A DNA stretch of 64,000 nt, taken from contig JAOUBX010000012.1 of NCBI GenBank assembly GCA_029860075.1, positions 3,654 through 67,653 on the forward strand, given 5' to 3'. This document shows, in pieces, positions 14,353 through 33,374 of this stretch; within the stretch, counting starts at the first letter, position 1; each line of letters begins with the position of its first letter. The notes beneath the pieces were generated by a model, which was given only the letters and a program-made list of their open reading frames with translations, did no database searches and was not told the origin of the DNA. The translations under genes and the position numbers were made by a program. The stretch is from Deltaproteobacteria bacterium (lineage in GTDB: Bacteria > Desulfobacterota > JADFVX01).

Positions 14353-14927
14353 AAAGCAGTTATTACTACTTTGTCGCTTCACTGCCCCACCTTTCTTTTT
14401 CTCAAACAAAGCCGATTTCCTATGAACATTTCCTCTCCCTTTGCGCTTCATTTCTTCATGCTAATGATTTTGACATTATAAAAAGCATTTCCCTTGCCGC
14501 CGCCGGAGGTAAGGCTGACTCTCTTGATTCCATGAAAAAATGGACGGCCTGGGACAGGGCGCTTCGATGGGAACTTGGACGCTTGAGGGCTGCCAAATTG
14601 GACCGTCAAATTGCGGCGCATGAGAATGCGGACAATAGTATTGCTTCCCATGCTGCAATGGTGGCAAAGGAGATTTTTGCCCTTTCCGCGCCCCTCGATG
14701 CCGATGAACAAATAGATAGAGCGAGATGGGAATATGTGGAACTTCTCGAATTTGGCCGTTACTTTGATATTGAGTGGCTCGCCCTTTATAGTCTCAAGCT
14801 TCACATACTGGAAAGGCGTGAGACCTTTGATCAAAAAGCAGGATTGCAGCGTCTTCATGCCATAATGGAGGGCGCGAGAAATAACTATGACGCAAAAGGA
14901 GACCCTGTGGAGGCAGATCTTGGCTAG
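14349..14927 (+). CDS. DUF2764-like protein of Bacteroidetes-type V-ATPase operons
   Basis: 192-aa ORF between atpE and atpA. Its start overlaps the atpE stop. Its position matches the conserved uncharacterised gene of 7-gene V-ATPase operons. This is recalled from memory, not verified. Confidence 0.45.
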   Translation: MKSSYYYFVASLPHLSFSQTKPISYEHFLSLCASFLHANDFDIIKSISLAAAGGKADSLDSMKKWTAWDRALRWELGRLRAAKLDRQIAAHENADNSIASHAAMVAKEIFALSAPLDADEQIDRARWEYVELLEFGRYFDIEWLALYSLKLHILERRETFDQKAGLQRLHAIMEGARNNYDAKGDPVEADLG

Positions 14928-18067: not shown

Positions 18068-18177
18068 CAGTCTTCCTTTGCAATGATAAGGGGCTTGACC
18101 TTTTCTTTCCTTATCGCCATTATAAACGGGCCGGAAGTGAAGGGGGGCTGTCTTTTTAATAGAGCGTTTTTATTTTT

Positions 18178-19794
18178 TTGAGGTCAACATTGTATCAGAA
18201 TAAGGGTCGGGAAAATGCCGCAAAGTATAATTTTATCTTTATTTCCGGCTTATGCCTTCTTTTTTTTATAACAAGGTTCTATAAACTCCATGGGCTCCCC
18301 ATATTTACAGATGAGTCGACTTACATCCGCTGGGCACAAATCATTGCAGAAGAGCCATCGCAGTTTCTGCTTTCCTTGAACATAGATGGGAAACAGCCCC
18401 TTTTTCACTGGATTAATGCCCTCACAGTGAAGCTTTTTAATAATCCTCTTACATCGATCCGGGTTATCTCTGTTTTTTCAGGATTTTTGTCAGCCCTTGC
18501 CCTTTATCATATTGCGCGCCTGCTTCATTCCAATGGCGCCGGCATATTGGCCCTTGCCCTCTATATTTTTACACCATACATGCTGATACATGATCGCATA
18601 GGCATAGCGGCTTCACTGCTTTCCCTGTTTATAACTTACACATTGCTAATATGCGTTATAATAAGCCGCCGGGGTGAAGGGAGCGGGAAATGGTTTCTCT
18701 TGCTCGGTCTCTTTCTAACGGCTGCCTTTCTTACAAAGACAACAGCCCTGCTCTATTTTTTGCTCCTGCCTGCCGTTATTTTTATTCTCGGCGGTACAAG
18801 AGGGGTCAAAAATAATTTATATTACTTCATGATTACTTATCTTGTTGCCTTTCTCATTATTGCGGTTATCAATTTGGGGGGATCATCGCCCCATGAAAGA
18901 AACCCTCTCTTTTATCAAAAGAAGTACTTTTTAACTGCCCGGGACCTCCTTTCTTTTCCACTTCATCTTTGGTGGAAAAATGCCGCTGTGCTGGTTAATT
19001 ATCTCTACTCCTACCTGACGCCGTTCATATTTTGGGTCGTGGCTTTTTCCGTTTTTTTTGTCATTAAGTATAAAAAAAGAGACTATATTGCCCTTTTTCT
19101 CTGGTTTCTCTTTCCCCTAATGGTTTTAATGCTTATAGGGCAGATCCTCTTTTCGCGCTATATTGTTTTTGCCATCCCTTCCGCCCTGGTTATTGCATCC
19201 ATTTCGATGCTTTATCTGCGGGAAAAGTTATTTGTTATTTTCCATAAGTTTCCTTTCAGGGGCTTATGGGCAAATGGGGTGATATCATTGTTTTTTATTC
19301 CCATGCTCATACTTGATTATGGTGTTATTATGAATCCCGTCAAGGCTGCCTTTATCCCGCAGGATCACTTCCAGTATGTAAGCGGCTGGCCTTCCGGTTA
19401 TGGAATCAGTGAGGCCGCACAATACCTGAAGGAAAAAGCAAAAGAGCAGCCCATAACGCTTTTTTTAACGACTATGTGGGGACATCCCAATGATTCGCTC
19501 ATCATCAATTTGAGAAATGAGCGGAACATAAGAATTTACGAAGCACATTGGTGGTATAAGGCTCCCATCGTCCCCGGGAATGTTGGCTATGCCCAAATGG
19601 GAAAGTCGAAATATTTAAAAGTGGTTGAAGGTACCCTTGATTTTAGTGAATTGAAGGAAACCTATTTTGCTACTGATTCCGAGAAATCACCGGAGATGGA
19701 ATTTCTGGGACAAAATAGAAACTTTTATAAGGTTGCATCCTTTTTCAAGCCCGGGAAAAAATATTCCGTTGATATTTATAAACTCCGTAATTAG
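18178..19794 (+). CDS. GT-C family glycosyltransferase (ArnT/PMT-like, GT83/GT39), polyprenyl-phosphate-sugar dependent
   Basis: About 11 predicted TM helices. The DE motif lies in the first periplasmic loop (LPIFTDESTYIRWAQI), as in ArnT/PMT, and there is a C-terminal soluble domain. The start codon is non-ATG (TTG) and uncertain. Confidence 0.7.
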   Translation: MRSTLYQNKGRENAAKYNFIFISGLCLLFFITRFYKLHGLPIFTDESTYIRWAQIIAEEPSQFLLSLNIDGKQPLFHWINALTVKLFNNPLTSIRVISVFSGFLSALALYHIARLLHSNGAGILALALYIFTPYMLIHDRIGIAASLLSLFITYTLLICVIISRRGEGSGKWFLLLGLFLTAAFLTKTTALLYFLLLPAVIFILGGTRGVKNNLYYFMITYLVAFLIIAVINLGGSSPHERNPLFYQKKYFLTARDLLSFPLHLWWKNAAVLVNYLYSYLTPFIFWVVAFSVFFVIKYKKRDYIALFLWFLFPLMVLMLIGQILFSRYIVFAIPSALVIASISMLYLREKLFVIFHKFPFRGLWANGVISLFFIPMLILDYGVIMNPVKAAFIPQDHFQYVSGWPSGYGISEAAQYLKEKAKEQPITLFLTTMWGHPNDSLIINLRNERNIRIYEAHWWYKAPIVPGNVGYAQMGKSKYLKVVEGTLDFSELKETYFATDSEKSPEMEFLGQNRNFYKVASFFKPGKKYSVDIYKLRN

Positions 19795-19918
19795 TGTTCA
19801 AGCGAAAATAGGGTTACCCCTAAAGTTGAAGGCCTATGCCTCTGAGAAGGTGTCCCCGTTAAATTATCAGACAAAAACCATGCAGGAAAAGGGTAAAAAT
19901 GGAAGGAGCAGAAATTAA

Positions 19919-20677
19919 TTGTTAACCTCTTTTAATAATAACTGGACGCTGGTAATCCCCATGGCAAATGAGGAGAATGACTTTTACCCTTTCATCAATG
20001 AACTGGTTGCTGTCCTTGATTATATGAAAAGCGGCCATGCCTTTCTCGTCATAGATGAAGTTTCCAGGGATAATACGCTGGAACTATGCCGGAAGCTTGC
20101 CGGGGGTGATTCCCGTTTTACCGTCATATGGGCGCCGGAAAACAGGAACATAGTGGATGCCTATTTAAGAGGCTACAGGGAGGCCCTTCTTAATGGGTAT
20201 GACATAATTATTGAAATGGATGCAGGGCGCTCTCATGATCCAAGGGCGCTTCCCATGTTCTTGAGAGTTCTCAACGAAGGAAATGACTGCGCCTTCGGCA
20301 GCCGGTTCATTAACGGCGGTTCCATGGTCGATTCGCCTTTCAAAAGACGGCTGCTGTCATGGGGAGGAACTTTTCTCGCTAATATTTTACTTGGCACGAA
20401 AATGAATGACATGACCTCCGGCTACCAGGGTTTTCACGCTTCAATAGTAAAAGCTTTTATCGATTATCCCTTCAGGTCAAAGGCCCATTTTTACCAGACA
20501 GAACTGAGATATTTATTGAGAAGATCGAAATATATGGAAGTTCCCATTCATTACAAGGCCCCTTCACCACGTGTTTCCAGGCATGCTGTTAGAAATTCTT
20601 TTGCCGCCCTCTTTTACTATTTTGGGAAACGTTGTATCTTTCAAAGTGAATGGATAGAAGGGAGAAGGCAATCATGA
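19919..20677 (+). CDS. GT2 family glycosyltransferase, polyprenyl-phosphate sugar synthase-like (DPM1/ArnC/GtrB-like)
   Basis: N-terminal VIPMANEEN block. It has a DxD-like IIIEMDAGRSHDP block and a GSRF block typical of DPM1-like GT2 enzymes. Confidence 0.75.
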   Translation: MLTSFNNNWTLVIPMANEENDFYPFINELVAVLDYMKSGHAFLVIDEVSRDNTLELCRKLAGGDSRFTVIWAPENRNIVDAYLRGYREALLNGYDIIIEMDAGRSHDPRALPMFLRVLNEGNDCAFGSRFINGGSMVDSPFKRRLLSWGGTFLANILLGTKMNDMTSGYQGFHASIVKAFIDYPFRSKAHFYQTELRYLLRRSKYMEVPIHYKAPSPRVSRHAVRNSFAALFYYFGKRCIFQSEWIEGRRQS

Positions 20678-21690
20678 AGCTCCCCTCACTCATTATTACT
20701 TCCATTGCCGGTCCCCGTAACGGCATTCTTGTTCAATATGCCAAAGCGTGCGCAAAGCGGGGGGTCCCCTTTTTTCTTATTGGGGATGTTCCCTCTCCAC
20801 AAGACTTCACACTTGAGGGCTGCCGCTTTTACGGAATCGAAGATCAGCAGAAACTGGATTTTAGATGCCTTAAAAATCTTCCTCTCCGTCATTATGCCAG
20901 GAAAAATATTGGATACCTTCTTGCTATCAGGGAGGGGGCTCAAATTATTATTGAAACCGACGATGATAATGTGCCGGAAGAGGGTTTCTGGAATGAACGA
21001 AGTGAAGTCAATGAAGGTGCTTTCATTAAGGGGGCGGGCTGGGTAAATGCCTATTCCTACTTTACTGACGAGCAAATATGGCCCAGGGGCTATCCCCTGG
21101 ACCTTATAAAGAATACGGATTTCCCTTCACATATTCCACATGTTAAAGAAATAAAGTGCCCCGTTCAGCAAGGCCTGGCTAATGACAATCCCGATGTTGA
21201 TGCCATTTACAGGCTTGTTGCGCCTCTTCCCCTGCGTTTCAGAGACGAGGGGAACCTTATTCTTGGTGAGGGAAGCTGGTGTCCTTTCAATAGCCAGAAT
21301 ACGACCTGGTTTCCTCATGCCTTTCCGCTCCTTTATCTTCCTTCTTTTTGCAGTTTCAGAATGACTGATATCTGGAGAAGCTTTGTTGCCCAGAGAATCT
21401 GCTGGGCAAACGGCTGGGGCCTCCTTTTTCATGGTCCCACCGTTAGCCAGATCCGTAATGATCATGATTTGATGAAAGATTTTAACGATGAAATAGCGGG
21501 GTATTTGCATAACAGGGCAATTTGTGATTCTCTTGCCGCTTTGCCGCTTAAATCAGGGATTTCCGGGATTCCCGCAAATATGATGAAATGTTACGAGCAA
21601 CTGACAGTGCTTGGCCATATTGATGCAAAAGAACTGACGCTTCTTGAAGCATGGCTCAGGGACCTGGATGAGGTGACGCCGAAAAAATAA
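20674..21690 (+). CDS. Putative glycosyltransferase-like protein (possibly DUF288/STELLO family)
   Basis: The start overlaps the GT2 stop (ATGA). It has a Rossmann-like N-terminus (LIITSIAGP) and an acidic ETDDDN motif. The family assignment is tentative. Confidence 0.35.
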   Translation: MKLPSLIITSIAGPRNGILVQYAKACAKRGVPFFLIGDVPSPQDFTLEGCRFYGIEDQQKLDFRCLKNLPLRHYARKNIGYLLAIREGAQIIIETDDDNVPEEGFWNERSEVNEGAFIKGAGWVNAYSYFTDEQIWPRGYPLDLIKNTDFPSHIPHVKEIKCPVQQGLANDNPDVDAIYRLVAPLPLRFRDEGNLILGEGSWCPFNSQNTTWFPHAFPLLYLPSFCSFRMTDIWRSFVAQRICWANGWGLLFHGPTVSQIRNDHDLMKDFNDEIAGYLHNRAICDSLAALPLKSGISGIPANMMKCYEQLTVLGHIDAKELTLLEAWLRDLDEVTPKK

Positions 21691-21809
21691 GCCCGCTCCA
21701 TGCAGGGGGGCAAAAAATCGGTTAAAATATGAGTACGGGCACAGATTAAGACCGGACGATTGGCTTTGCTTGTTCATAGCCCGTCCTTGCGCGGAGACTT
21801 ACTGAAAGG

Positions 21810-22409
21810 ATGCAGAAAATTAAACTCACAAAACATGAACTCAAGCGTCATAAGGAGAATTTAAGGCGTTATAACCGCTTTCTCCCCACCCTCACGGCCA
21901 AAAAACAGCAGCTTCAGCGTGAGATTGTAAGAATCAGGGGGGAGATAAAGGGGCTGGAAAGTACCTTTAAAGAAGAAAGGGCAGGTATCATGCCCTGGGT
22001 TTCACTTCTCGCTGAAGATGTGGGTCTTGAAAAAATGGTGCGTTGCAAAGGGATCAGGCTGGGGGCGGATAATATTGCCGGTGTGGATATTCCCGGGTTT
22101 GAAGGTGTTGATCTTGCCGTGACTGACTATGATCTCCTGTCAACGCCCCTCTGGGTTGATTGGGCGATAGAAAAGCTGGGGAGACTCATGGTACTGGATG
22201 CCCGGATCGACGTGCTAAAAAAGCAGATAGCCCTTCTTGCGCAGGAGTTGCTTGTGACGACCCAGAGAGTCAACCTTTTCGAAAAGGTAAAAATTCCGGA
22301 GGCCATCGACGCCATCAGAAGAATAGCGATTCATCTTGGCGACCAGCAGACGGCGGCTGTTGTCTGGGCCAAAATGGCGAAGAAAAAATTGCAGGTACAG
22401 GGCATATGA
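21810..22409 (+). CDS. atpD: V-type ATP synthase subunit D
   Basis: 199-aa coiled-coil protein with the conserved N-terminal pattern of V/A-type D (central rotor stalk). Confidence 0.8.
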   Translation: MQKIKLTKHELKRHKENLRRYNRFLPTLTAKKQQLQREIVRIRGEIKGLESTFKEERAGIMPWVSLLAEDVGLEKMVRCKGIRLGADNIAGVDIPGFEGVDLAVTDYDLLSTPLWVDWAIEKLGRLMVLDARIDVLKKQIALLAQELLVTTQRVNLFEKVKIPEAIDAIRRIAIHLGDQQTAAVVWAKMAKKKLQVQGI

Positions 22410-24262
22410 TTGTTGCCATGAAAAAAATAACCTTTCTCATGAGGCCGCGCTGGTCTTATGAAGCGACTGCCCTTCTCAGGGAGGCAGGCGCGCTGCATTT
22501 AAGTTGCCCCCTTACTCCCGCAAGCGAGCATATTGCAACCATTGAAAATAAAATGAAAACCCTTGAAAAGGCGATAGCTATTCTCCAAAAGGCGGGGGCA
22601 GGGGAAGGGGAAGGGGAAGGGGAAGGGAGAAAGAGTTTTACCATCGAAGAAGCGCAAGTCCTGACGGGACGGATTATTGACCTTGATGAAGCGGCCTGTG
22701 AAGTGGCGAGGGATTTGGAGAAACTTGAAAGTGAATACGAGAGGGTTGTCCGCTGGGGGGATTTCAATCACGCTGACATAGAGGCCCTTGAAAAGGCCGG
22801 CATCGATGTGACGCTTTTTTCATGCCCTCAAGAGGCCCTTGAAAAGTTGCCGGCCGGCTTAAACGGGCATGTTATCAATCGGATCGGCGGCAGGTGCTTT
22901 GTGGTGGTTTTCTCTAAAGGTGAAAGACCGCAAATTCCTTTCAGTAAGGTAGAGGCGCCTCATCGTTCTTTCAAAGAGATAGGGCAATTGATTGATGAAA
23001 ATAAGGAGAGACTTTTAGCTGTTAATGAAGCGTTGAAGGGACTTGCAGGCGCATTGCCGCTATTGATGGAAATATTGGAGGCTTTTAGGGATAAGCTTGA
23101 ATTTGAGAAGGTGCGCCGGGGAATGGGGGAAGAGGACGGCATTGCCTATGTTAAAGGTTTTGTCCCCGCTTGCCGTCTTGAAGTGTTGAAAAAACTGGCC
23201 TCCCAAGAGCGTTGGGGCATTGTTGTCGAGGAACCGGGAGAGGAAGATGATGTGCCCACACTTATCAGGCATTCCAGGTTATCGGCGCTTTTTCAGCCGG
23301 TCATGTCTTTTATGGGCATAACACCGGGCTACTTTGAGTATGATACCAATGCCGTCTTCCTTATCTTCTTTTCCCTCTTTTTTGCCATGATTGTCGGTGA
23401 TGCAGGTTATGGTCTGTTACTGCTTGTTGCCACCTTTGCGCTTCAGCGCTTTAACGCGTCTTTCTCCGGTCATTTGCAGAAGCTTTCTTATCTCCTTTCC
23501 CTGTCGACACTGGTTTGGGGCGCTGTAACGGGTAACTGGTTCGGTGTATCAGGGGCGGCATTGCCTTTGCTTGAAGGCCTGATTATACCGGGCCTTGATT
23601 CCTTCCATGCCGCCGCCGACTCTGTAGTGATGGAATTATGTTTCTTTATCGCCCTCCTCCATCTCTCCGTTGCACATATCTGGAAGGCCCTCCTCTCCTA
23701 TCCCTCTCTAAGGGTATGGGGTGAAAGCGGATGGGTGATCATGCTGACAGGCATTTATTTTCTTGTGAAAGGGCTCATACTCAAAAGTGCTTCTCTTCCC
23801 ATGTCCATGATTTTCGTATTGTCAGGCTTTGCCATGATCATTCTTTTCGGCATGCAGGGACGGGGCGGTTTTTTAAAGGGAACCCTGAAGGGCCTGAAAT
23901 CACTTCCCCTGACGGCCCTTGACGGTGTGGGCGGGCTATCCAATATAGTTTCCTACTTAAGGCTTTTCGCCGTAGGGATGGCGTCGAAAGAGGTGGCGGC
24001 GGCTTTTAACGCAATGGCGCTTGAGAGGGGTTTTCATGATGTAATATCTATCTTCATTGCTGCGCTCATTCTTATTTTCGGTCACGGAGTCAATATGCTT
24101 TTAATTGCCATGTCCGTTATTGTTCACGGTATAAGATTAAATATCCTCGAATATTCGGGACATATGAATATAGAATGGTCGGGCATTCCTTATAAACCCT
24201 TTGGTCGTTCCCCGAAAGAGAAGGAGCAGGAATTGCTTTCGAAAGCGTTAATGGAGGTGTGA
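22406..24262 (+). CDS. atpI: V-type ATP synthase subunit I (a-subunit)
   Basis: The start (MIVAMKKITFL) overlaps the atpD stop (ATGA). It has a soluble N-terminal ~330 aa and a C-terminal multi-TM domain. It contains an in-frame (GGGGAA)4 repeat encoding EGEGEGEG. Confidence 0.8.
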   Translation: MIVAMKKITFLMRPRWSYEATALLREAGALHLSCPLTPASEHIATIENKMKTLEKAIAILQKAGAGEGEGEGEGRKSFTIEEAQVLTGRIIDLDEAACEVARDLEKLESEYERVVRWGDFNHADIEALEKAGIDVTLFSCPQEALEKLPAGLNGHVINRIGGRCFVVVFSKGERPQIPFSKVEAPHRSFKEIGQLIDENKERLLAVNEALKGLAGALPLLMEILEAFRDKLEFEKVRRGMGEEDGIAYVKGFVPACRLEVLKKLASQERWGIVVEEPGEEDDVPTLIRHSRLSALFQPVMSFMGITPGYFEYDTNAVFLIFFSLFFAMIVGDAGYGLLLLVATFALQRFNASFSGHLQKLSYLLSLSTLVWGAVTGNWFGVSGAALPLLEGLIIPGLDSFHAAADSVVMELCFFIALLHLSVAHIWKALLSYPSLRVWGESGWVIMLTGIYFLVKGLILKSASLPMSMIFVLSGFAMIILFGMQGRGGFLKGTLKGLKSLPLTALDGVGGLSNIVSYLRLFAVGMASKEVAAAFNAMALERGFHDVISIFIAALILIFGHGVNMLLIAMSVIVHGIRLNILEYSGHMNIEWSGIPYKPFGRSPKEKEQELLSKALMEV

Positions 24263-24263
24263 T

Positions 24264-24704
24264 GTGAATATTGTCGATATATTAGGTGATACCGGTTTTG
24301 TTATGGCCCTTTGTCTTCCGGCGCTGGGCTCTGTCCTCGGCACAAGCGCGGCAGGAATGGCGGCACTTGGTGCATGGAAAAAGTGCTTCCTTGCAAACAG
24401 GACGGCCCCATTCATCATGGTTGCTTTTGCCGGAGCGCCTCTTTCGCAAACCATTTACGGCATGATCCTTATGAATGCCCTTATGGGCGCCGGGGGGACG
24501 GCAGCAGATGTCAAGTTCAGTGCAGGCCTCTTTGGTGGTCTTGCCATGGGAGCTTCAGCCTGGTTACAGGGTAAGGCCGGGGCACTTGCTTCCGATGCGC
24601 TGTCCGAATCGGAAAAAGGGTTCGGAAACTACATCATGGTTATCGGTATTATTGAGACAGTGGCCCTCTTCGTTATGGTATTTCTCATGACGGCCCTTAA
24701 GTAG
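24264..24704 (+). CDS. atpK: V-type ATP synthase subunit K (proteolipid c-subunit)
   Basis: GTG start one nt after the atpI stop. It has Gly/Ala-rich TM hairpins with the conserved ion-binding Glu (GIIETVALF). Confidence 0.8.
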   Translation: MNIVDILGDTGFVMALCLPALGSVLGTSAAGMAALGAWKKCFLANRTAPFIMVAFAGAPLSQTIYGMILMNALMGAGGTAADVKFSAGLFGGLAMGASAWLQGKAGALASDALSESEKGFGNYIMVIGIIETVALFVMVFLMTALK

Positions 24705-24887: not shown

Positions 24888-25255
24888 AGAACGCATATTC
24901 AAAGATGCTCTAAAAAGCCGCAGGAAGCGCCTAAAGGCTCGAAAAATCCGGGCCATACCGGCAGCTTGCAGGGGCGCTTGTGCTGTAAACCATGAACTGC
25001 CGCCGCTTCCAGCTTCAACTGAGGTTGTGTGGCGAGATTATGGGCGGGTCTTTGTCCTGATGGCAGTCTTTTTTCACTCGCTTCCCCTCTCCCGGAATGT
25101 CCTTCCGAAAAATTAAGAGGCTTTTTCCGGCTTCCAATCTCCCGGATAATGAAAGAATATGTCAAAAAAAAGGGGTAGACTGGAAGGGAATAAAGTTATA
25201 ATATATGAAGGTTTTACTGTCTTGTTACTATCACTGTTTGAATAAAGGAAATGCT

Positions 25256-25852
25256 ATGTCAAATAAATGTCTATCTTCCGGCGGACCCGGCGCTTTAGCC
25301 GTCCTTTTCTCCCTTCTTATGTTTATCTCCCCGGTCATCGCTGCTGCTGCGCCAGCCCAAAAGGTGAAAAAGGAGCTTAAGGCCGGCTCTTCAGTTCCTG
25401 CGTCTGCCGGAAATGCAAGAAAAGGGATTGAACCTCTCAGGAAGTTATCTGCCATTGAGGTTTTCAGGAACAAAAAGCTGCTTGAAAAAACGATCAAGGA
25501 CCTCGATGCATACAGGGTAATGCTCAAGTACCTTGTCAGTGAACATCATGAGGACAGTCAGCGTCTTTTGCTGCTTGAAGAGACGGATAATTACATTGAT
25601 AAAAATGTCGATCCTTTAATAGAAGATAATCTTAATTATAATGATGAAACCTTTAACCTTGTCGTTACCTTGAGGTTTTATAAGGCCTATGCTTATTTTG
25701 AAGCAGAGAAGTACGACAAGTATCAGGAAATATTGACGGATATGAAACGGGTCCACGGCACGGAATTTTTGAGTATAGCCATAAGGCCCTTTGGAGAGAA
25801 ATATAAAACCATTGGTGATGCTGTAAAAAATTTAAGAGGGATGATTCTTTAG
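25256..25852 (+). CDS. Hypothetical secreted protein
   Basis: Signal peptide when the start is taken at MSNKCLSS (RBS AAGGAAA). No recognisable domain. Confidence 0.4.
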   Translation: MSNKCLSSGGPGALAVLFSLLMFISPVIAAAAPAQKVKKELKAGSSVPASAGNARKGIEPLRKLSAIEVFRNKKLLEKTIKDLDAYRVMLKYLVSEHHEDSQRLLLLEETDNYIDKNVDPLIEDNLNYNDETFNLVVTLRFYKAYAYFEAEKYDKYQEILTDMKRVHGTEFLSIAIRPFGEKYKTIGDAVKNLRGMIL

Positions 25853-25863
25853 AGGTATAAAAA

Positions 25864-26553
25864 ATGGAATTTAGTTATCGATTTTTTCACGCATTTAATT
25901 CATCTGAGTCAGGGTATGTTTTTATGTGGATACTGCTTTTAAGCGGTATTGTTGCCATGGCTATTGTTATTGAAAGGTTGGCCTTTCTCACCTTAAAGTC
26001 AGGGAAAAGGAGCGCTTCACAATTAGATAATGTGATTTCCGTGGTGGCCGGCGGCGATATGAAAGGCGGTCTTGCCCTTTGCGCCGGGGCAAGTAAAAAA
26101 GCTGTTTTCCAGGTCCTGGAAAATGTGCTGGCAAGCTCTCCGTCAGGAAGTGATCAGGTGCAGAATGTGGTTGATGAATCGATGCTAAAAGTCATTCCTC
26201 ACCTTGAAAAGAGAACGACTTTCCTGGCGACGATAGGTAATATTGCAACCTTGATCGGCCTTATGGGAACCATTTACGGCCTTATTCTTTCTTTTTCCGC
26301 CGTAGGTAAGCCCGGTATCGATGCCGTAGAAAAATCGACACTGCTTGCGTCGGGAATTGCCGCGGCCATGAGCACCACTTTTATGGGCCTGCTTGTCGCC
26401 ATCCCGTCAATCGGCATGTATGCTTATTTGAAATCCAAAACCCAGATGATAGTTGATGAAATTGATCTTTATACGCTGAAGCTTTCCAATGCCCTGCTCA
26501 TAAGCCAGGAAAAAAGAGTTGAAAAAAATTATGACGATTCAAGCCGGGTTTAA
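25864..26553 (+). CDS. MotA/TolQ/ExbB proton-channel family protein
   Basis: 229 aa with three TM helices. It has the conserved TM2/TM3 block (GLMGTIYGLILSF ... LLASGIAAAMSTTFMGL). Confidence 0.8.
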   Translation: MEFSYRFFHAFNSSESGYVFMWILLLSGIVAMAIVIERLAFLTLKSGKRSASQLDNVISVVAGGDMKGGLALCAGASKKAVFQVLENVLASSPSGSDQVQNVVDESMLKVIPHLEKRTTFLATIGNIATLIGLMGTIYGLILSFSAVGKPGIDAVEKSTLLASGIAAAMSTTFMGLLVAIPSIGMYAYLKSKTQMIVDEIDLYTLKLSNALLISQEKRVEKNYDDSSRV

Positions 26554-26616: not shown

Positions 26617-27936
26617 ATGTATTTTATTAATGAACTGCTAAGTGGATTTAAACCGGGGCAGGAGAGCTTTGTCTTTATGTGGGGCCTCGCTCTTGTTGCT
26701 TTTATTGCCGTAGTGATTAATGTTGAGAGATGGTTGAGGATCAAGAAGCTGACCGACGTTAATGCCCTGGCCTTTATTGATGAAGTTTGTCATCTTATTG
26801 ATGAACAAAAGCATGATCAGGCTCTCAAAATTTGTGACCTGGGCGGAGAGAGAGCGCTTGCAGGAATTGCAGGCGCCGCTATCAGACAGTCCCTTCGCTT
26901 TCCTCACCTTGTCAAAAGCGCTATGGAAGAGGAGTTCCTTAAGGTTATTCCCTCTATGGACCGCAGGTTAAACCTCATCTTTGTTATCAGCAACCTCTCT
27001 ACCATGATAGGGCTTATGGGTACCATATGGGGGCTAATTATCGCTTTTTCAGCGATTAGCAATCCCGGTGTTGCAGCCGTTGAAAAAAGCTCTCTCCTTG
27101 CGGCCGGTGTGTCGACAGCCATGAACACAACCCTCGTTGGCCTTACCATCAGTATCCCCTGTCTTCTTTCTTTCTTTATCTTCAGAAACTGGGTTGACAG
27201 AAAAACAGTTGAGCTTGATCGTTATGCTCTTCATCTTTTACGCGTACTTTCTCCCGGAGTAACGGCCGTAAAGAATTATAAGTTTTCCAGCAAAAGAATC
27301 AGTGAGGATATCGATCATGAACCGAATATCGGTCCCATGATGAGCCTCATTGTCATTCTTATTCCCCTTCTTCTTTCTTCTGCCGAATTTGTCAAGGTGG
27401 GCGCCATAGAGCTTCATGTTCCGGACAATAAAAAACAGGAACAGCCCAAGACTGAAGAGAAAGATGAAAAGGAGAGCATCTATCTCGGTCTTAAGCTGAA
27501 GATAGGGAAAGAGGGATTTTATCTTTCACACTATTTCAAGGATGAAGGGGCCGTTAATGAAGGGGGAGATGGCAGTGAACATTCCCTTCCCGATATTCCC
27601 ATGGCGGACGGCAGGTATGATTTTAAGGTTCTTCAGAAAAAGCTCGCTGAAATTAAAAGGTTGACTCTCCTGTCTCTTGCCGCGGTGGAATATGATGTCG
27701 ATGAAGATGCGCCCCTCGATGAGTCATATGTTCTTTTTGCAAAGGTTGCCGGCAGTGAAAGCCTGAAAGGTTTTCTTGAGGACCGGGACCAGGTAAAAAT
27801 ATCGGCTGAAAAGGATGTCCCTTACCAGACAATTATTTCTGTTATGGATTCGGCGCGGGAAGTTCAGGCGAAAAGCGGAAAAATACCGCTCTTTCCATCC
27901 ATATCATTTGCAGGGAGTGTGACACCAGGGCAATGA
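26617..27936 (+). CDS. MotA/TolQ/ExbB-family protein with a C-terminal ExbD/TolR-like extension (fusion)
   Basis: Residues 1-200 form an ExbB-like three-TM core (GLMGTIWGLIIAF, LLAAGVSTAMNTTLVGL). Residues ~235-439 resemble ExbD: a TM segment EPNIGPMMSLIVILIPLLL, in which the usually conserved Asp is replaced by Ser, and a C-terminal periplasmic block DVPYQTIISVMDSARE. Confidence 0.65.
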   Translation: MYFINELLSGFKPGQESFVFMWGLALVAFIAVVINVERWLRIKKLTDVNALAFIDEVCHLIDEQKHDQALKICDLGGERALAGIAGAAIRQSLRFPHLVKSAMEEEFLKVIPSMDRRLNLIFVISNLSTMIGLMGTIWGLIIAFSAISNPGVAAVEKSSLLAAGVSTAMNTTLVGLTISIPCLLSFFIFRNWVDRKTVELDRYALHLLRVLSPGVTAVKNYKFSSKRISEDIDHEPNIGPMMSLIVILIPLLLSSAEFVKVGAIELHVPDNKKQEQPKTEEKDEKESIYLGLKLKIGKEGFYLSHYFKDEGAVNEGGDGSEHSLPDIPMADGRYDFKVLQKKLAEIKRLTLLSLAAVEYDVDEDAPLDESYVLFAKVAGSESLKGFLEDRDQVKISAEKDVPYQTIISVMDSAREVQAKSGKIPLFPSISFAGSVTPGQ

Positions 27937-28433
27937 AACGCGGACGCAGAAGAAAAATGGGGTCTCAGGGGGACCACAATGCAAAATTGAACATTACATC
28001 CATGATGGATATATTTATTATTATTCTTGTCTTTTTGCTTAAAGTTTTTTCAACTCAGGGCCAGCTCGTAACGCCGGCTGCCGGCCTTACCTTGCCCACA
28101 TCAACCATAGAAAGTCCGGCCAGGGAGTCTTTGTCCGTCAAGATCCTGGCAGACAAGATACTGGTTGAGGATGAGGTGGTTCTTAATAGTGTGGATTATG
28201 AAAAAACGGTAAAAGATGAATCAAAGGGTCTCATCAAATCATTATACAATACGCTGGTTCTTCATGCCAAAGAGGCTAAAGCGGTATCTGAAAAAGTAGA
28301 AAGCAGCTTTTCAGGTGAGATAACTATTCATGGTGATAAGGGTATCCCTTATAATCTGCTGACTCGCGTTATGTATACGTGCACAAAAGCAGGCTACCCT
28401 GTTATGAAGCTCCTTGTTTACAGGGAGGAATAA
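27933..28433 (+). CDS. Biopolymer transporter ExbD/TolR family
   Basis: Single TM segment with the conserved Asp (ITSMMDIFIIILVFLL). The periplasmic domain has an ExbD-like C-terminal block. The start overlaps the preceding stop. Confidence 0.75.
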   Translation: MKRGRRRKMGSQGDHNAKLNITSMMDIFIIILVFLLKVFSTQGQLVTPAAGLTLPTSTIESPARESLSVKILADKILVEDEVVLNSVDYEKTVKDESKGLIKSLYNTLVLHAKEAKAVSEKVESSFSGEITIHGDKGIPYNLLTRVMYTCTKAGYPVMKLLVYREE

Positions 28434-28485: not shown

Positions 28486-29673
28486 TTGGCCTTTCCGTCA
28501 GGACCTTTTCCTAATGAGTTTCGTGACAGGGCTTTCGGCAAGCCTGACAAGCCCTTTGTTGTTGTGCTCCTCTTTACCCTGTTCCTCGTTGGCGGACTGA
28601 CATTTATCATGTCTTTACGTAAACCGCCGGCTGTTGACAAGAAACATATCGTAAAGATACAAAACAGGTATGCAAAACTGGTTCTTGATGCATTTGAGAT
28701 AGAAAAAAGAAAAAAAATGAAGAAAGAGGTAAAACCTCCTTCAGAGGCGCTTAAAAAAACGGCTCAAGTTCCAGAATTGAAAAAAGAAGAACCTGAGGTA
28801 GAGAAACAAAAGGAAGAAATAAAAATAGAAATTCCAAAAGTTATAGAAAGAAAAGTAAAAAAATATGAGATCCGCAAGGAAAAGATCGAAATTGCCGAAT
28901 TGGAAAAAGAAATAAAGATCGAAACATTGCCCGATCTTCCTGATATTCTCGATAAAAAAAGCAAGCGCTATGGTGAAAGGCAGGACTCCGATGAAATAGG
29001 GCTGGACCCTGATCTTGATAAGGGTTTTAATCTTGCTGACCAGGGGCCTCATATTGACGTTTCAAGATCCAGCAGGTACGGCAGTGGCGGAAACAGGGGC
29101 AGCGGGGGACTCGATTACGAAGAAGACGAGACAAGTACCTTGCAGAGTAAGGAGCCTCAGATAGATACAAGAACGGTTAAACGGTATAAATCCAAAAGGG
29201 GCGCTTCGAAAGATTCCGGTACCGGATCGCTTGTTGCTGATATGAATGACAGGAAAGTTGTTCTGGCAAAAAAAGCGCCTCAGACAAAAGTGCTTGTGAA
29301 AAAAAGATACGGAAGAGAAAGTTACAAAAGGCGTGCTTCAAGGGAAAAAGAGAGCGCTTCTATTGCAATGAAAGAAAAGGGCGCCATTTTGAAAAAAGAG
29401 GGTAAAATGGCTTCTCTTCCCGAGAGGGCAAATATCCAGAATCTTGAAGCATGCGTTGATCCCAATGAAGAAAAAATGCTCAAGAAGAAGATTGTAACCC
29501 ATGTTGGCGATGCCGCTACCTGCAGTGATAAGTGGGGAAGTTACGCTTATCTCGGCAGGGAAATGTTTTCGACCCTTGAAGTGAGGTTTGTCAGCTCGGG
29601 AAAAAGAAGATACAACCGGTGTGAGGCCCTTAACAGGGCGCTCCAGTGCCTTATCAATAAAAATAAGAGGTGA
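28486..29673 (+). CDS. Atypical TonB/TolA-like bitopic energy-transducer candidate (Lys/Glu-rich linker, Cys-containing C-terminal domain)
   Basis: N-terminal TM anchor (FVVVLLFTLFLVGGLTFI) and a long K/E/P-rich repeat region. The C-terminal domain has 4 Cys and no canonical TonB C-terminal motif. The start codon is unclear: the RBS AAGGAGG at 28454-28460 precedes an in-frame CTG at 28468, and a TTG lies at 28486. Confidence 0.4.
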   Translation: MAFPSGPFPNEFRDRAFGKPDKPFVVVLLFTLFLVGGLTFIMSLRKPPAVDKKHIVKIQNRYAKLVLDAFEIEKRKKMKKEVKPPSEALKKTAQVPELKKEEPEVEKQKEEIKIEIPKVIERKVKKYEIRKEKIEIAELEKEIKIETLPDLPDILDKKSKRYGERQDSDEIGLDPDLDKGFNLADQGPHIDVSRSSRYGSGGNRGSGGLDYEEDETSTLQSKEPQIDTRTVKRYKSKRGASKDSGTGSLVADMNDRKVVLAKKAPQTKVLVKKRYGRESYKRRASREKESASIAMKEKGAILKKEGKMASLPERANIQNLEACVDPNEEKMLKKKIVTHVGDAATCSDKWGSYAYLGREMFSTLEVRFVSSGKRRYNRCEALNRALQCLINKNKR

Positions 29674-29676
29674 TTC

Positions 29677-31779
29677 ATGAAATTAAAGTTTGTCCTAAAT
29701 CTGCTATTGCTCTCAATGCTCTTTACGGGCACATCATTTGCTGCAAAGGGTGAACCCTCCCGGCATTGGGATGCCTTTCTCGATGTAGGCTACAGATTTA
29801 CCTTGCTTCCCGGTGATGAGCTGGAAGACCTTATAAAGGGTGAAGGCAAGAGGTATGGCCAGAGCCTTTCTCAATATGTGGCCATATTGGAATCACAAAT
29901 CGGGGGCAGGAACGCTGTCGGAACTTCCGGAGATATGAAGTTTCTTCCGCCTGATACCTTTAGGCGTGTTGCAGTAGCCCATCTCATCCTCTACCTGAAA
30001 AGCGGAAAAAAGGAACATCTCCATAAGGCTGAAAAAAAGATTTCCGTATTGGCCGGGAAAAGAAAAACACCAAGAATCATATTCTGGCATAATTTTATTC
30101 TCGCACATCAGAACCTGGTAAAGAGAGAGTCACTTGCCTTTACACACCATGTATTTAGAATCTGGAATGATGTTATTATGGAACTGGAAAAAGCCCAATC
30201 CATGCTGGGCACTAATATCGGCATTACCGGCTTTAATACAAGCCTTCCTTATCTCTATGAAAATATGGTTTTTTTAATCCTTAATCATGGCATTGTAGAA
30301 GAAAAGCTGGCCGATTTGCACCCTCTGGGCGTTATTATCTGGTCAATGAAGGATCGCCTTGAAAAGGACAAAGGTTATTACCAGCTGGCTGAAAGCGTCT
30401 GGAACCGCATGTATGGTCTCACATCGGATAATTTTAATGTCAATTATGCCATGGCCCTTCTCGAAGGTGAAACAAGGTGGCTCGATTTCGAAGCGTCAAA
30501 GTCACCGGCGGCGGCAAAGAAGCGCTTCCAGGAGGCTGAAAATTATTTCCAGTATGCGCTAAAGTGGGCTGATACGAGGAAGGGACAGGCTGCCATACTG
30601 TCGAGACTGATGGAGTCTATGACAAAGGTCTTGAACGATATGGTTCGGGGCAGAAAGAATGTTTCTCATGAGTTTTTCAGAGAGATTCCCGATTATTCCT
30701 TGTCGCTTACAGCAAGCGCAAGAACACTTTTCCTGGAAATGTCGAATGAAGATCTTATACATAATGGTGGCTGGCAGGTAGAAGGTTTTGCTGCCAGGGA
30801 CCACTATATTGATGCCATGCACTCAATCTGGCTTAATTCTTTACAGCTTGACATACTCATTGCAAGATACTACAGGCGTAGCATCAATAATGTAAAGAAG
30901 GGGCAGGAAAAAATTCATTTTATAGATCTGGCTTCACAACCCATGTTTGATTATCTTGATTTTTTTGAGGAGTTTACGCAGAACGGGCATACACCTATCG
31001 TTCCTGACAATGCGTATTTTTATGCATCCTACTTTGCTTCCGAACTGGCTGAGCTTCACCGGATGAAGGCAAATTATACGGGCGATGTGCTTGAGTATAA
31101 TATGGCTTTTATCAGACAACTCCAGGCTATCGAGATCTATCCTTTTGATGTGATTGGTGTCCTCAATCTCACCATGCAGGTATCTCAGGATGGAACATTG
31201 AATAAATATATTTCAAACGTATGGCCTATTGCCGAGAGAATTCCCGAGTCCGAAACGATTAAAAGGTGGCAGACAAAGAATAAGCTTCCCTTTATTAATG
31301 AAGTTAACAGTCTAAAGTATCTTGTTCCTGAGACGATGAGGTCTGCTCCGTCTATTATAGGCTTGCAGACAGGAGGGTCTTCCAGGAAAAGACTTATTGA
31401 GGATACCATATTACTGGCCCAGTTGATTAAACTTATCCTGCAAAGTGATGGCGCAAAAAAGATTAATCAGCTTATGGATGAAATCTCCCTTGAACTAAAC
31501 AAGGGGCTCACGCTTAAAAAGGCATTGGAAAGAAGCTTGCCAAAAGACATGATGGATAAAGCCAAGCCTGTTATTGCGCTGCTTAATTCATGTGATTACA
31601 GCAAGCTCAAAAAAGCGCTCTTTAGAAACCCTGAAAATGAGTATCATGCTCTTTTCAGGAGTTTTTACCATGAGAAGGATGAGAAGGAACTGCGTCATAT
31701 GGTACTGTTGAGAGCTTACAGGGAGAGCTGGAGCCTTCAACAGGAAATGGCAAAGAAATACAGGAAGGAAGTAAAATAA
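29677..31779 (+). CDS. Hypothetical secreted protein (700 aa, predicted alpha-helical, no recognisable domain)
   Basis: Signal peptide (LLLLSMLFTGTSFA). It starts 4 nt after the preceding stop, so it is probably co-transcribed. Confidence 0.5.
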   Translation: MKLKFVLNLLLLSMLFTGTSFAAKGEPSRHWDAFLDVGYRFTLLPGDELEDLIKGEGKRYGQSLSQYVAILESQIGGRNAVGTSGDMKFLPPDTFRRVAVAHLILYLKSGKKEHLHKAEKKISVLAGKRKTPRIIFWHNFILAHQNLVKRESLAFTHHVFRIWNDVIMELEKAQSMLGTNIGITGFNTSLPYLYENMVFLILNHGIVEEKLADLHPLGVIIWSMKDRLEKDKGYYQLAESVWNRMYGLTSDNFNVNYAMALLEGETRWLDFEASKSPAAAKKRFQEAENYFQYALKWADTRKGQAAILSRLMESMTKVLNDMVRGRKNVSHEFFREIPDYSLSLTASARTLFLEMSNEDLIHNGGWQVEGFAARDHYIDAMHSIWLNSLQLDILIARYYRRSINNVKKGQEKIHFIDLASQPMFDYLDFFEEFTQNGHTPIVPDNAYFYASYFASELAELHRMKANYTGDVLEYNMAFIRQLQAIEIYPFDVIGVLNLTMQVSQDGTLNKYISNVWPIAERIPESETIKRWQTKNKLPFINEVNSLKYLVPETMRSAPSIIGLQTGGSSRKRLIEDTILLAQLIKLILQSDGAKKINQLMDEISLELNKGLTLKKALERSLPKDMMDKAKPVIALLNSCDYSKLKKALFRNPENEYHALFRSFYHEKDEKELRHMVLLRAYRESWSLQQEMAKKYRKEVK

Positions 31780-32138: not shown

Positions 32139-33083
32139 CTATTTCTTAATTTGGGAGAGTTTGCTTTTTACCGCTCTGATTCGCGGGTCACCGGATTTTG
32201 CATGGGTGAGAAAGGCATTAAGCGCATCTTCAATTTTATACTCTTTTAGAATATCGGTAAAAAGAAAAGCCTTGTAGTAATAGGCGTCAGCATTTTTTCT
32301 GTCAAGGGCGATGACTTTATTAAAGTCAGCGAGCGCTTGATTCTTCATACCTTTTTTATAATAGGAGTGTGCGCGGTTCATATAGAGTTCAGGGTCATCA
32401 GAATCGAGTTCTATTGCTTTGGAATAATCTTCTATGGCATTGCCGTACCTGCCTCTTTGATAATAGCTAAAACCTCTGTTTGAATAGGCCGCTATTTTAT
32501 CGGGATCAATCTCTATTGCCCTGCTGTAATCGAGAATTGCCTTAAAATGGTCTTTTAATTCATCATGGGCGATTCCCCTGTTTACATAGGCGCCGTAATA
32601 TACGGGCTTCATATATAAAGCCGTATCATAATCCGCAATGGCTTCTTTATATTTATCCATTTCCAGGTAGGCGTTTCCCCGATTATAGTATATGACGGGA
32701 TTATCAATCCTGAAATCGAGATACTTTGTATAATCATTAACGGCTTTTCTGTGTTTTTTTAACTCCGTATAAGTGAGGGCTCTTTTATAATACAGGTCGG
32801 GGTCTTTGGGGTTTATTTCTATGGCCCTGGTCAGGTCCTTCTCGGCAGCAGCGTATTTTTCCAGTTGAATATAGGCGTCACTTCGTTCCTGATAGGCTTT
32901 AAGATTCCCCGGCTTTTTTTTAATAGCTTTTGACAGTTTCTTGATTTTTTTATTCAGATTTTGAATCATCTCCTCTTTACTGCCGGCCGTTGTTGTGCCG
33001 CACCCTGCCGTATAAAGCACAGTAAGCAGGCAGAGAGAACAGGCAATGAAGAGCCTTTTGCTAATAATTTGATTTGTCATATG
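32139..33083 (-). CDS. Tetratricopeptide-repeat lipoprotein
   Basis: Start chosen at MTNQII. Lipobox (YTAGCG). It has multiple TPR units (e.g. AYYNRGNAYLEMDKYKEAIADYDTAL). Confidence 0.7.
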   Translation of the reverse strand, partial: HMTNQIISKRLFIACSLCLLTVLYTAGCGTTTAGSKEEMIQNLNKKIKKLSKAIKKKPGNLKAYQERSDAYIQLEKYAAAEKDLTRAIEINPKDPDLYYKRALTYTELKKHRKAVNDYTKYLDFRIDNPVIYYNRGNAYLEMDKYKEAIADYDTALYMKPVYYGAYVNRGIAHDELKDHFKAILDYSRAIEIDPDKIAAYSNRGFSYYQRGRYGNAIEDYSKAIELDSDDPELYMNRAHSYYKKGMKNQALADFNKVIALDRKNADAYYYKAFLFTDILKEYKIEDALNAFLTHAKSGDPRIRAVKSKLSQIKK

Positions 33084-33374
33084 AGTCCCGTATTTTATTG
33101 ACGTTTTTAAAAAGAACATGGATATCATAAAATGAAGAAATCTTCAAGGGATTATATGGAAAAGCCTGATTCCCTGCAAGAAAACTTTTATTCTATTTGT
33201 TTGGAAGTAGTGTATTATTAAAGCGTTCGAAAAAATTCTTATTGTTCAAGATACGAGGAGAAATCTTAACGATCTCTCACTACCTTCGAAACAAGTATTC
33301 CTCCTTTTACTCGAAATGACACACTGCTGCAATTGCCTAATCGGACAACAGTGAAGGAAAGATGATAATAAAAT

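Follow-up and report, generated by a model that had tools for sequence, protein, structure and literature searches.

The window analysed here, a 64,000-nt stretch of DNA deposited as Deltaproteobacteria bacterium (assembly GCA_029860075.1, contig JAOUBX010000012.1, positions 3,654 to 67,653), carries a four-gene motor operon composed of a free ExbB, an ExbB::ExbD1 fusion, a free ExbD2 that bears an Asp, and a single-pass force transducer of the GltG/TonB-like kind. At its centre is the fusion gene, an uninterrupted open reading frame (ORF) of 439 aa on the + strand (26617-27936), which an earlier interpretation of the DNA letters without database searches (the sequence-only reading) had described as a MotA/TolQ/ExbB paralogue joined to an ExbD-like module without the protonatable transmembrane (TM) Asp. 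We consider it virtually certain that a genuine ExbB/TolQ-type core is here joined to an ExbD/TolR-type module, and we conclude that the operon encodes a generator of envelope force that is driven by protons and belongs to the Ton/Tol/Agl class.

Both halves of the fusion score above the Pfam gathering cut-offs: aa 95-200 match MotA_ExbB (PF01618; E 1.3e-20, 73.8 bits against a cut-off of 22.9), and aa 233-420 match ExbD (PF02472; E 4.5e-10, 40.1 bits against a cut-off of 25.4) over profile positions 5-120 of 128. An AlphaFold2 (AF2) monomer model, built on an alignment of 79 homologues and with a mean predicted local distance difference test score (pLDDT) of 82.6, places helices at 18-46, 118-148 and 154-211, the three TM segments of an ExbB-type protein, and a fourth at 238-260, which is the topology that had been read from the sequence. 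The ExbB-type core (aa 1-211; 26617-27249) comprises TM1 at about 18-46, cytoplasmic helices, TM2 at 118-148, and TM3 with its cytoplasmic extension at 154-211; its pLDDT is mostly above 90, and Foldseek matches the N-terminal half of the fusion to TolQ (9ddn_E; TM-score 0.77 normalised by target, root-mean-square deviation 3.1) as well as to ExbB (5sv0/6tyi). A cytoplasmic tether follows (aa 212-237; 27250-27327), which hhalign identifies as the counterpart of the N-terminal tail of free-standing ExbD1 proteins ('PSxRR...EPN'), and then the fourth TM helix, TM4 (aa 238-260; 27328-27396), homologous to the ExbD/TolR pore helix in alignments with those proteins. Beyond the membrane lie a low-complexity periplasmic spacer (aa 261-289; 27397-27483), variable in sequence and in length (pLDDT below 50 over aa 258-284; 17-24 aa between P269 and L290 among homologues), and a periplasmic ExbD-type alpha/beta domain (aa 290-435; 27484-27921), for which the pLDDT is about 90 in the full model and 93-98 in a separate model of the C-terminal module (C-module). 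Relative to free-standing ExbD1, this domain has an extra insertion of about 33 aa, with a helix at about 367-377. The C-terminus of ExbB and the N-terminus of ExbD are both cytoplasmic (structures 5SV0 and 6TYI), and because the ExbB C-terminus lies on that side of the membrane an in-frame fusion is topologically compatible.

The kinship of the C-terminal half with ExbD/TolR, on which the sequence-only reading had staked its proposal, is borne out by the PF02472 match and by the alignment of the ExbD1 and ExbD2 families with each other (hhalign probability 96.8%, E 2.4e-10, 137 columns), in which the Asn of the former stands opposite the Asp of the latter. Comparison of predicted folds yields less: ExbB/TolQ chains only, and no ExbD chain, were among the Foldseek matches of the full fusion model, and the separate C-module model (pLDDT 83.7) retrieved nothing significant, ExbD periplasmic domains appearing at probabilities of 0.18-0.51 with TM-scores of about 0.55. 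The homology of the periplasmic domain is for this reason argued from profiles rather than from fold comparison and, as a phmmer search of the C-module against the PDB was also weak (best E 0.0087), it was judged by Pfam and hhalign.

The protonatable TM Asp is D25 in ExbD, D23 in TolR and D32 in MotB. In phmmer alignments with solved ExbD (7ajq_F) and TolR (9k49_F and 9ddm_Y) chains, HEPNIGPMMSLIVILIPLLL of the fusion is aligned on HEINVTPFIDVMLVLLIIFM and EINIVPLLDVLLVLLLIF; a detailed account of the same alignments has EPNIGPMMSLIVILIPLLL of the fusion opposite EINVTPFIDVMLVLLIIF and EINIVPLLDVLLVLLLIF. These alignments put Ser243 (codon AGC, 27343-27345) at the position of ExbD Asp25 and TolR Asp23, in agreement with the earlier claim. 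Across 78 aligned fusion homologues the same column is occupied by Asn (57), Ser (16) or Gly (5), with no Asp at all, so that the fused C-module is to be regarded as a homologue of canonical ExbD and not as its functional equivalent.

On either side of the fusion lie the free subunits with which the sequence-only reading had paired it. The downstream ExbD2 (166 aa; 27933-28433, + strand; PF02472, E 9.1e-16) does retain the Asp, as Asp26 (GAT, 28008-28010) in the ExbD alignment, and its start codon overlaps the stop codon of the fusion (ATGA). The upstream protein (229 aa; 25864-26553, + strand) is indeed a free ExbB/TolQ/AglR-type subunit (PF01618, E 1.5e-25; phmmer 7.4e-11 to TolQ 8odt_A). 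The fusion and the free ExbB each have Thr136 and Thr172 where TolQ has T145 and T178 and ExbB has T148 and T181, the pore-lining Thr residues of TM2 and TM3 (phmmer alignments). The acidic residue of TM3 (TolQ E173/ExbB E176) is not kept, its place being taken by Thr167 in the fusion and by Ala in the free ExbB; an acidic residue there characterises the Ton and Tol subfamilies, not the Pfam family as a whole.

A homologue search over 5.8 billion proteins returned about 80 homologues of full length (35-80% identity), nearly all with both Pfam domains. Across the 79 that were aligned, 37 columns are invariant, among them Thr136 and Thr172 and, in and just after TM4, L248, I249, P250, L252, L253, E257, F258, K260 and G262; TM4 and the following 'SSAEFVKxG' are nearly invariant as a whole, as is R227 of the tether. 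The stretch from D201 to P240, which includes the tether, is 40 aa long in 73 of 79 homologues and 41 aa in five. The invariant columns, the fixed length of the tether and an Asp column that is never D argue for purifying selection and against decay. An artefact created by a frameshift, or a decaying pseudogene whose Ser reflects relaxed selection, might be suspected in a metagenome-assembled genome (MAG) such as the one to which the window belongs, and the ExbD module does score below the free ExbD (40 vs 58 bits). We nevertheless hold the chance of this to be practically negligible: the architecture recurs in the 79 full-length homologues and at 55 fused genome loci; the tether has a fixed length and 37 columns are invariant; the AF2 models of both halves are of high confidence; and the probable orthologue in Fibrobacter succinogenes, FSU_2401, assigned by synteny only, has been detected as a protein (PMC6851124). 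The identical ORF is also present on a 280-kb ENA contig and in a Logan assembly (100% identity over 6240 bp), although matching assemblies prove little alone because they may share reads. An assembly or sequencing frameshift, the pitfall that the sequence-only reading had itself named, is ruled out by the homologues, the fused loci, the fixed tether and the identical second assembly taken together, and the 439-aa ORF is shown by these comparisons to be a genuine and ancient fusion kept by selection.

A scan of GTDB, with one genome per species, found 307 stretches encoding relatives, the best 80 of which were examined with about 8 kb of flank on each side; ORFs were called in them by a simple custom script, and MAG taxonomy labels are used as deposited. 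In 55 of the 80 loci the genes are fused, in the order free exbB, fusion, exbD2 and a gene for a single-pass membrane protein, so that the search for the same architecture in other genomes, which had been proposed along with the fusion, was amply answered. These loci belong mostly to Fibrobacterota (Chitinivibrionales, Chitinispirillaceae and Fibrobacter MAGs), together with one Raymondbacteria MAG and three 'Proteobacteria' or unclassified MAGs (L002, L003 and L017), which are the closest relatives of the window. The other 25 loci, from KSB1, Calditrichota and a few MAGs labelled otherwise, are unfused and have exbB (~216 aa), exbD1 (~172-186 aa), exbD2 (~161-171 aa) and a fourth gene of the same kind as in the fused loci, with 3-80 nt between exbB and exbD1; a locus from Sandaracinaceae (Myxococcota) has this unfused order as well. 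An exbD2 is present in 77 of the 80 loci, that is, wherever the contig extends, and all 77 ExbD2 proteins have the Asp, ExbD1 and ExbD2 being strictly co-inherited across these 77 loci and at least four phyla.

The two kinds of locus differ in their complement of exbB. An additional free exbB lies directly upstream of the fusion in 50 of the 50 fused loci with enough sequence (the other five end at a contig edge), whereas a second exbB was seen in none of the 25 unfused loci within the ~8 kb fetched on each side. In a quick neighbour-joining (distance) tree of ExbB cores, the fused cores are monophyletic (52 of 52), and their sister clade unites the 49 free ExbBs from fused loci with the 25 ExbBs from unfused ones, which makes the free ExbB of the window an orthologue of the single ExbB of unfused operons. 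The free ExbBs are also closer to the ExbBs of unfused loci in mean identity (44%, vs 36% for the fused cores). The likely history is that exbB was duplicated, that the copy beside exbD1 fused to it and diverged, and that the other copy was never lost. As for the taxonomy of the carriers, the label of the window protein is 'Deltaproteobacteria bacterium' and that of its nearest relatives 'Proteobacteria bacterium', although elsewhere the fused operon is characteristic of Fibrobacterota; the agl/glt homologues of F. succinogenes have been found to group with Deltaproteobacteria (Luciano et al. 2011, PMC3169522), and horizontal transfer or loose MAG taxonomy could account for the discrepancy.

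Where the module without an Asp came from can be read from the unfused operons. The fused C-module aligns with free-standing ExbD1 of KSB1 and Calditrichota at an hhalign probability of 100% (E 3.8e-56), over the whole of ExbD1 beginning with its N-terminal 'MAYKPSxRR', the fused form having a single insertion of about 33 aa, and the first residues of the unfused protein are paired with 'KFSSKRIS-EDIDHEPNIGP' of the fusion. Because the alignment starts at the very N-terminus of ExbD1, and because the separate genes are only 3-80 nt apart, the fusion looks like a read-through of exbB into the adjacent exbD1. All 18 free-standing ExbD1 proteins of unfused loci that were compared have Asn at the Asp position. 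An exhaustive phmmer search with the window C-module against 1.84 billion representatives gave 335 clusters at E <= 0.001; among the best 150, 144 could be scored, of which seven are full-length fusions (>=400 aa) and 137 are shorter, mostly free-standing proteins of 150-260 aa with some fragments. These 137 have Asn at the Asp position in 117 cases, Ser in four, Gly in two and Asp in four. Profile searches extend the Asn-type ExbD family to 1,746 or more clusters (90% identity), those with names coming from KSB1, Calditrichota/Caldithrix, Myxococcota, Sandaracinaceae, Bradymonadaceae and 'Deltaproteobacteria' MAGs; the motif 'PVMNLFxxLIPFxL' was present in all seven named free-standing ExbD1 clusters that were inspected, and members are annotated merely as 'biopolymer transporter ExbD'. 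Free-standing ExbDs of Asn type (motif 'PxMNLxxxLIPxLL'; L049-L080, L083 8001-8612, P0095-P0230 and P0244-P0494) are always found paired with an Asp-bearing ExbD.

With so large a free-standing family having Asn, the TM Asp is not universal among ExbD proteins, contrary to what the sequence-only reading had assumed, and its picture of an Asp lost within the fused module has to be turned around: the Asp was lost before the fusion took place, the fused module descending from an Asn-type ExbD1 that already existed as a widespread free-standing protein (with Ser in the lineage of the window). Two different ExbDs per ExbB were thus present in the ancestral system already.

The last gene of the motor operon, g395 (28486-29673, + strand), encodes a membrane protein that has one TM segment and a spacer rich in Lys and Glu. 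In its N-terminal part it is homologous to the GltG/TonB-type proteins encoded by the fourth gene in the relatives, the N-terminal anchor and an 'IQxRYAxLVLN' region matching the fourth genes of Fibrobacterota (phmmer 1e-10 to 7e-15). The protein has no Pfam or NCBIfam match, TonB_C and AgmX included, and its C-terminal ~90 residues form a four-Cys domain. In the relatives (Fibrobacterota, KSB1 and Calditrichota), the product of the fourth gene scores above the Pfam cut-off for TonB_C (PF03544) in four of five cases tested, reaches 86-101 bits against NF033768 (the AgmX/PglI C-terminal domain; cut-off 40), and aligns with the C-terminal half of the GltG model NF033760 at E 1e-26 to 1e-35, scores that fall well short of the equivalog cut-off of 650. 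In g395 this TonB/AgmX-type C-terminal domain has been replaced by the four-Cys domain. The TM anchor of the transducer has a His in many KSB1 members (L049, L051, L052, L054, L056, L058, L062, L063 and L065), reminiscent of the SHLS motif of TonB/TolA, and a Glu in L060 and L068; neither residue is found in Fibrobacterota and Calditrichota (L005, L013 and L070-L077) or in g395.

The stators of the Ton, Tol, Mot and Agl systems are thought to be pentamers that turn around a symmetric dimer, and in the current 5:2 model the two Asp residues of that dimer are protonated alternately as the pentamer steps around it. For the fused operon we favour, with moderate confidence, a heteromeric motor in which a pentamer of four ExbBs and one fusion surrounds a heterodimeric ExbD1/ExbD2 axle (4+1 : 1+1). 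The 5:2 architecture of the Ton, Tol and Agl stators would be kept but made heteromeric: the pentamer would consist of four free ExbBs and the ExbB core of a single fusion, and the fused ExbD1 helix together with one free ExbD2 helix would form the axle, both standing in the pore and facing the rings of Thr136 and Thr172. Such a motor would possess a single protonatable Asp, the partner helix with Asn or Ser staying neutral at all times; Asn classically mimics a protonated Asp. The tether of 40 residues would begin where the TM3 extension ends (about residue 211) and return through the cytoplasmic cavity to the pore, fixing the stoichiometry at one ExbD1 per motor, and proton flow through the single Asp would move the pentamer relative to the axle, a movement that would be passed to the envelope via the ExbD periplasmic domains and the g395 transducer. 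A mixed complex of the fusion with the free ExbB and the free ExbD was among the possibilities raised in the sequence-only reading; that general idea gains support of an indirect kind from comparative genomics, namely from the extra exbB (50/50 fused vs 0/25 unfused loci) and from the constant Asp of ExbD2 (77/77).

Four ExbBs, one fusion and one ExbD2 would be the simplest arrangement that makes use of all three conserved proteins. That the extra exbB is always retained is what would be expected if fusion protomers alone cannot build the pentamer because the pore holds only two ExbD helices. A position of TM4 in the pore would fit the conserved mid-membrane polar Asn/Ser/Gly and the invariant Thr136 and Thr172, and an ExbD1/ExbD2 heterodimer would fit both the strict co-inheritance of the two proteins and the overlap between the stop codon of the fusion and the start codon of ExbD2. 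For the motor of Myxococcus xanthus, published AlphaFold modelling gave a robust prediction only for AglR5-AglQ-AglS, that is, for a heterodimeric axle, together with GltG (PMC11761067).

TM4 might also pack outside the pentamer, as the TonB and TolA anchors do, leaving the pore to ExbD2 homodimers and making the fused domain an accessory, present in up to five copies, that binds peptidoglycan or a transducer on the periplasmic side. The solved TonB-ExbBD and TolAQR complexes (9ddo and 9ddm) do have a peripheral single-pass helix, AF2 places TM4 without confidence, and a helix outside the pore could lose the Asp without harm. We think this arrangement improbable all the same. TM4 is homologous to the pore helix of ExbD and not to the TonB/TolA anchors; Asn, Ser or Gly at the exact position of the Asp and an invariant Pro250 in the middle of the helix would be unexpected on a surface that faces lipid; unfused ExbD1 keeps the cytoplasmic 'PSxRR' tail of an ExbD; and a free ExbB, kept in 50 of 50 loci, would be unnecessary if fusions built the whole pentamer.

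Several points weigh against the heteromeric 4+1 : 1+1 motor. Its stoichiometry and the occupancy of its pore are deduced from comparative genomics; TM4 has a pLDDT of only 49-62 in the AF2 monomer; and the best ExbD match to the C-module model (8vgc_A; Foldseek probability 0.51, TM-score 0.55) is a weak one. The association of the fusion with an extra exbB is a single evolutionary event, confined to one clade, and so amounts to retention and not to independent replication, and the extra free exbB fits three ExbBs with two fusions equally well. E. coli ExbD D25N and MotB D32N are said to be inactive and dominant-negative, and if that is correct a heterodimer with one Asp would need a modified mechanism. 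Finally, either of the two ExbDs of Bacteroides fragilis suffices for function (PMC11467351), so that paired ExbDs need not be obligate heterodimers.

Some of these same points could be accommodated by two separate complexes, a canonical ExbB5-ExbD2(2) proton motor and a non-conducting assembly of three ExbBs and two fusions around a pore without any Asp, the latter acting as an anchor, regulator, plug or assembly intermediate, for example by tethering the transducer or binding peptidoglycan. ExbD and TolR normally homodimerise in established structures (6TYI and 8ODT), 3+2 accounts for the free ExbB of fused loci no less well than 4+1, and the restoration of function by either B. fragilis ExbD alone suggests that homodimeric motors are possible (PMC11467351). 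A near-invariant TM helix without the Asp, and the conserved Thr136 and Thr172, are however hard to explain in a non-conducting plug; ExbD1 and ExbD2 have travelled together through 77 loci and at least four phyla; and the published Agl model is robust only as a heterodimer (PMC11761067). We regard a division into two complexes as unlikely.

If the heteromeric motor is accepted, there is the question of how it could move. Continuous rotation would be constrained by the tether, yet it is in principle topologically allowed, since a single chain on or near the axis can swivel. That the tether and the single Asp do not allow continuous 36-degree stepping and so enforce a different cycle, such as an oscillation through a limited angle or a single proton-driven power stroke with an elastic return, seems to us quite unlikely; if it were true, the fused family would provide a natural test of whether stators of the Ton/Tol/Agl type need full rotation at all.

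It is instructive to set the operon beside better-known systems. With the E. coli Ton system (ExbB5-ExbD2 and TonB; 5SV0, 6TYI and 9DDO) it has in common the ExbB-type fold (Foldseek TM-score 0.6-0.7) and the pore Thr residues, the ExbD-type TM helix and periplasmic domain, and an operon-linked single-pass transducer, with a TonB-type C-terminal domain in the relatives. It differs in the covalent fusion of ExbB to ExbD, in the presence of two ExbB and two ExbD paralogues, one of the latter without the Asp, in the absence of an equivalent of ExbB Glu176 from both of its ExbB-type proteins, and in a transducer without a recognisable TonB_C (PF03544/TIGR01352). In the gene table, no TonB-dependent transporter, TolB (PD40) or OmpA/Pal Pfam family appears within ~10 kb either side of the fusion. 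A plain Ton system in the window is unsupported, as g395 lacks TonB_C.

The E. coli TolQ5-TolR2-TolA complex (8ODT, 9DDM and 9KPZ) gives the best sequence and structure match to the ExbB-type halves (phmmer 1.8e-07 and 7.4e-11; TM-score 0.77) and shares with them a short core of ~215-230 aa; the Lys/Glu-rich spacer of the window's transducer likewise resembles that of TolA. Neither a fusion nor an Asp-less paralogue is present in Tol, however, and there are no TolB, Pal or CpoB genes in the window operon. With NCBIfam scores of 50 and 70 bits for tolQ (cut-off 221) and of 19 and 30 for tolR (cut-off 127), far below the equivalog cut-offs, and with no tolB or pal in the flanks, membership of Tol-Pal is ruled out.

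The Agl-Glt machinery of M. xanthus (AglR-AglQ-AglS with GltG) resembles the window system in combining a TolQ-like protein with two distinct TolR-like proteins, although it has one TolQ-like core where the window has two. AglQ (162 aa, with the essential D28) corresponds in size to ExbD2 and AglS (194 aa) to ExbD1; the literature searched yielded nothing on the Asp status of AglS, and reviews name only AglQ as the proton site. A GltG-type transducer is found in the relatives (NF033760 and NF033768), whereas g395 matches neither model and is alike in its N-terminal part only. Further differences are that the M. xanthus proteins are unfused and include a single AglR, that the N-terminal FHA domain of GltG is absent from the window system, and that none of the gliding genes gltA, gltB, gltK and cglB was seen in the system studied here. 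A 'core complex' of aglR, aglQ, aglS, gltD, gltE, gltG and gltC, of unknown function, has been described, its genes lying together in F. succinogenes, Geobacter and a number of gamma- and betaproteobacteria (Luciano et al. 2011, PMC3169522). Very large YbgF/CpoB-like tetratricopeptide repeat (TPR) proteins are encoded just upstream of KSB1 and Calditrichota loci, a further point of likeness to Agl. At L049 (25-7539) and L077 (145-7635) they are two in number, of 864-965 aa and 1524-1623 aa, with repeated YbgF/CpoB-like and BamD-like TPR units and with a small protein of 114-133 aa after them, and they may be GltD/GltC-like partners.

Closest of all are the unfused operons of KSB1, Calditrichota and Myxococcota (L049-L080 and L083), which share gene order, the ExbD1/ExbD2 pair and the fourth-gene family with the window, and whose ExbD1 has in common with the fusion the TM motif 'PxMNLMVxLIPLLLSSA' and homology over the full length of the module. 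They differ in having exbB and exbD1 as separate genes, a single ExbB in the fetched flanks, and an ExbD1 without the 33-aa periplasmic insertion. We found no paper on unfused operons of the order exbB-exbD1-exbD2-gltG-like.

Two published loci come near to the fused operon. In F. succinogenes S85, FSU_2400 (ExbB family), FSU_2401 ('membrane protein', ExbD motif), FSU_2402 (ExbD) and FSU_2403 (TonB family) were all found as proteins, at higher abundance on cellulose (Raut et al. 2019, PMC6851124). Near in locus-tag numbering, FSU_2396 (OmpA) and FSU_2397/2398 (TPR) belong to a cellulase-containing outer-membrane complex; the cluster is treated there as an ordinary Ton system for cellodextrin uptake, and fusion and missing Asp go unmentioned (PMC6851124). 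The same gene order is seen at two Fibrobacter MAG loci (L005 and L015; ExbB of 255 aa, fusion of 426 aa, ExbD of 167 aa and a TonB_C protein of 353 aa), and it is because of this synteny that FSU_2401 is probably the fusion. The tonB3 locus of B. fragilis, an FCB-group relative of Fibrobacterota, also combines two ExbB and two ExbD paralogues in one Ton-type locus; all four are separate genes, either exbB or either exbD restores function, and the authors describe the stoichiometry as unknown (PMC11467351).

Around the motor operon lie several genes of looser attachment. Eleven nt upstream of the free exbB, g215 (25205-25852, + strand) encodes a protein of 215 aa that gives faint TPR-like Pfam matches only, and 3 nt after g395, g700 (29677-31779, + strand) encodes one of 700 aa that has no significant Pfam or NCBIfam match; each has an N-terminal hydrophobic segment that, read from the sequence, resembles a signal peptide. 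Homologues of both occur only in L002, L003 and L017, those of g700 always directly after the g395 homologue, and a role of g700 in the system, like the membership of g215, which synteny in the lineage of the window suggests, would follow from gene order. The same C-terminal swap of the fourth gene is seen in these three loci (L002 3544-4758, L017 7231-8379 and L003 9772-11235); it is always accompanied by g700 and g215, neither of which has a homologue in any of the remaining 77 loci. Convergent to the operon and weakly associated with it is a gene for a TPR-repeat protein of 329 aa (32139-33128, - strand), which is kept at the same position in L002 and L003; its N-terminal Cys-containing hydrophobic segment suggests a lipoprotein, and it matches TPR Pfam families down to 4e-45, the NCBIfam models of the GltE and Tgl TPR lipoproteins scoring far below their cut-offs. 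Farther upstream, at 14887-24704, the window holds an interrupted V/A-type ATPase operon with subunits A (ending at 16791), B (16679-18067), D (21810-22409), I (to 24262) and c/K (24264-24704); between B and D the gene table gives the Pfam labels of glycosylation-type genes, PMT_2 (18178-19794), Glycos_transf_2 (19919-20677) and STELLO (20650-21690).

In the searchable literature we found no description of an ExbB-ExbD, TolQ-TolR or MotA-MotB fusion, and none of a family of ExbD paralogues without the Asp. The two-domain architecture is already visible in precomputed Pfam annotations and in product names of the Joint Genome Institute, so that the family is known to databases. Whether ExbBD and TolQR rotate, and how they assemble with two ExbD or TolR paralogues, are open questions according to a review of AglQ/AglS and the B. 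fragilis study (PMC11467351). The fused operon offers a natural, phylum-wide case in which one subunit of the axle is permanently without a proton site and is also covalently tied, by a tether of fixed length, to one subunit of the wheel, while an extra free wheel gene is always kept alongside; these three features together would imply an asymmetric 4+1 : 1+1 complex. The comparison also flags a large and unrecognised class of Asn-type ExbD paralogues. If FSU_2400-2403 are orthologous, as gene order suggests, then the fused operon would be the cellulose-abundant cluster of F. succinogenes (Raut et al. 2019, PMC6851124); the Agl-Glt core complex has been listed for this organism separately (Luciano et al. 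2011, PMC3169522). What makes the family most interesting is its bearing on the proton cycle. The fused proteins keep a nearly invariant pore-type helix with Asn, Ser or Gly in the place of the Asp and, if the inactivity reported for D-to-N mutants of E. coli ExbD and MotB is correct, the family must use a modified cycle.

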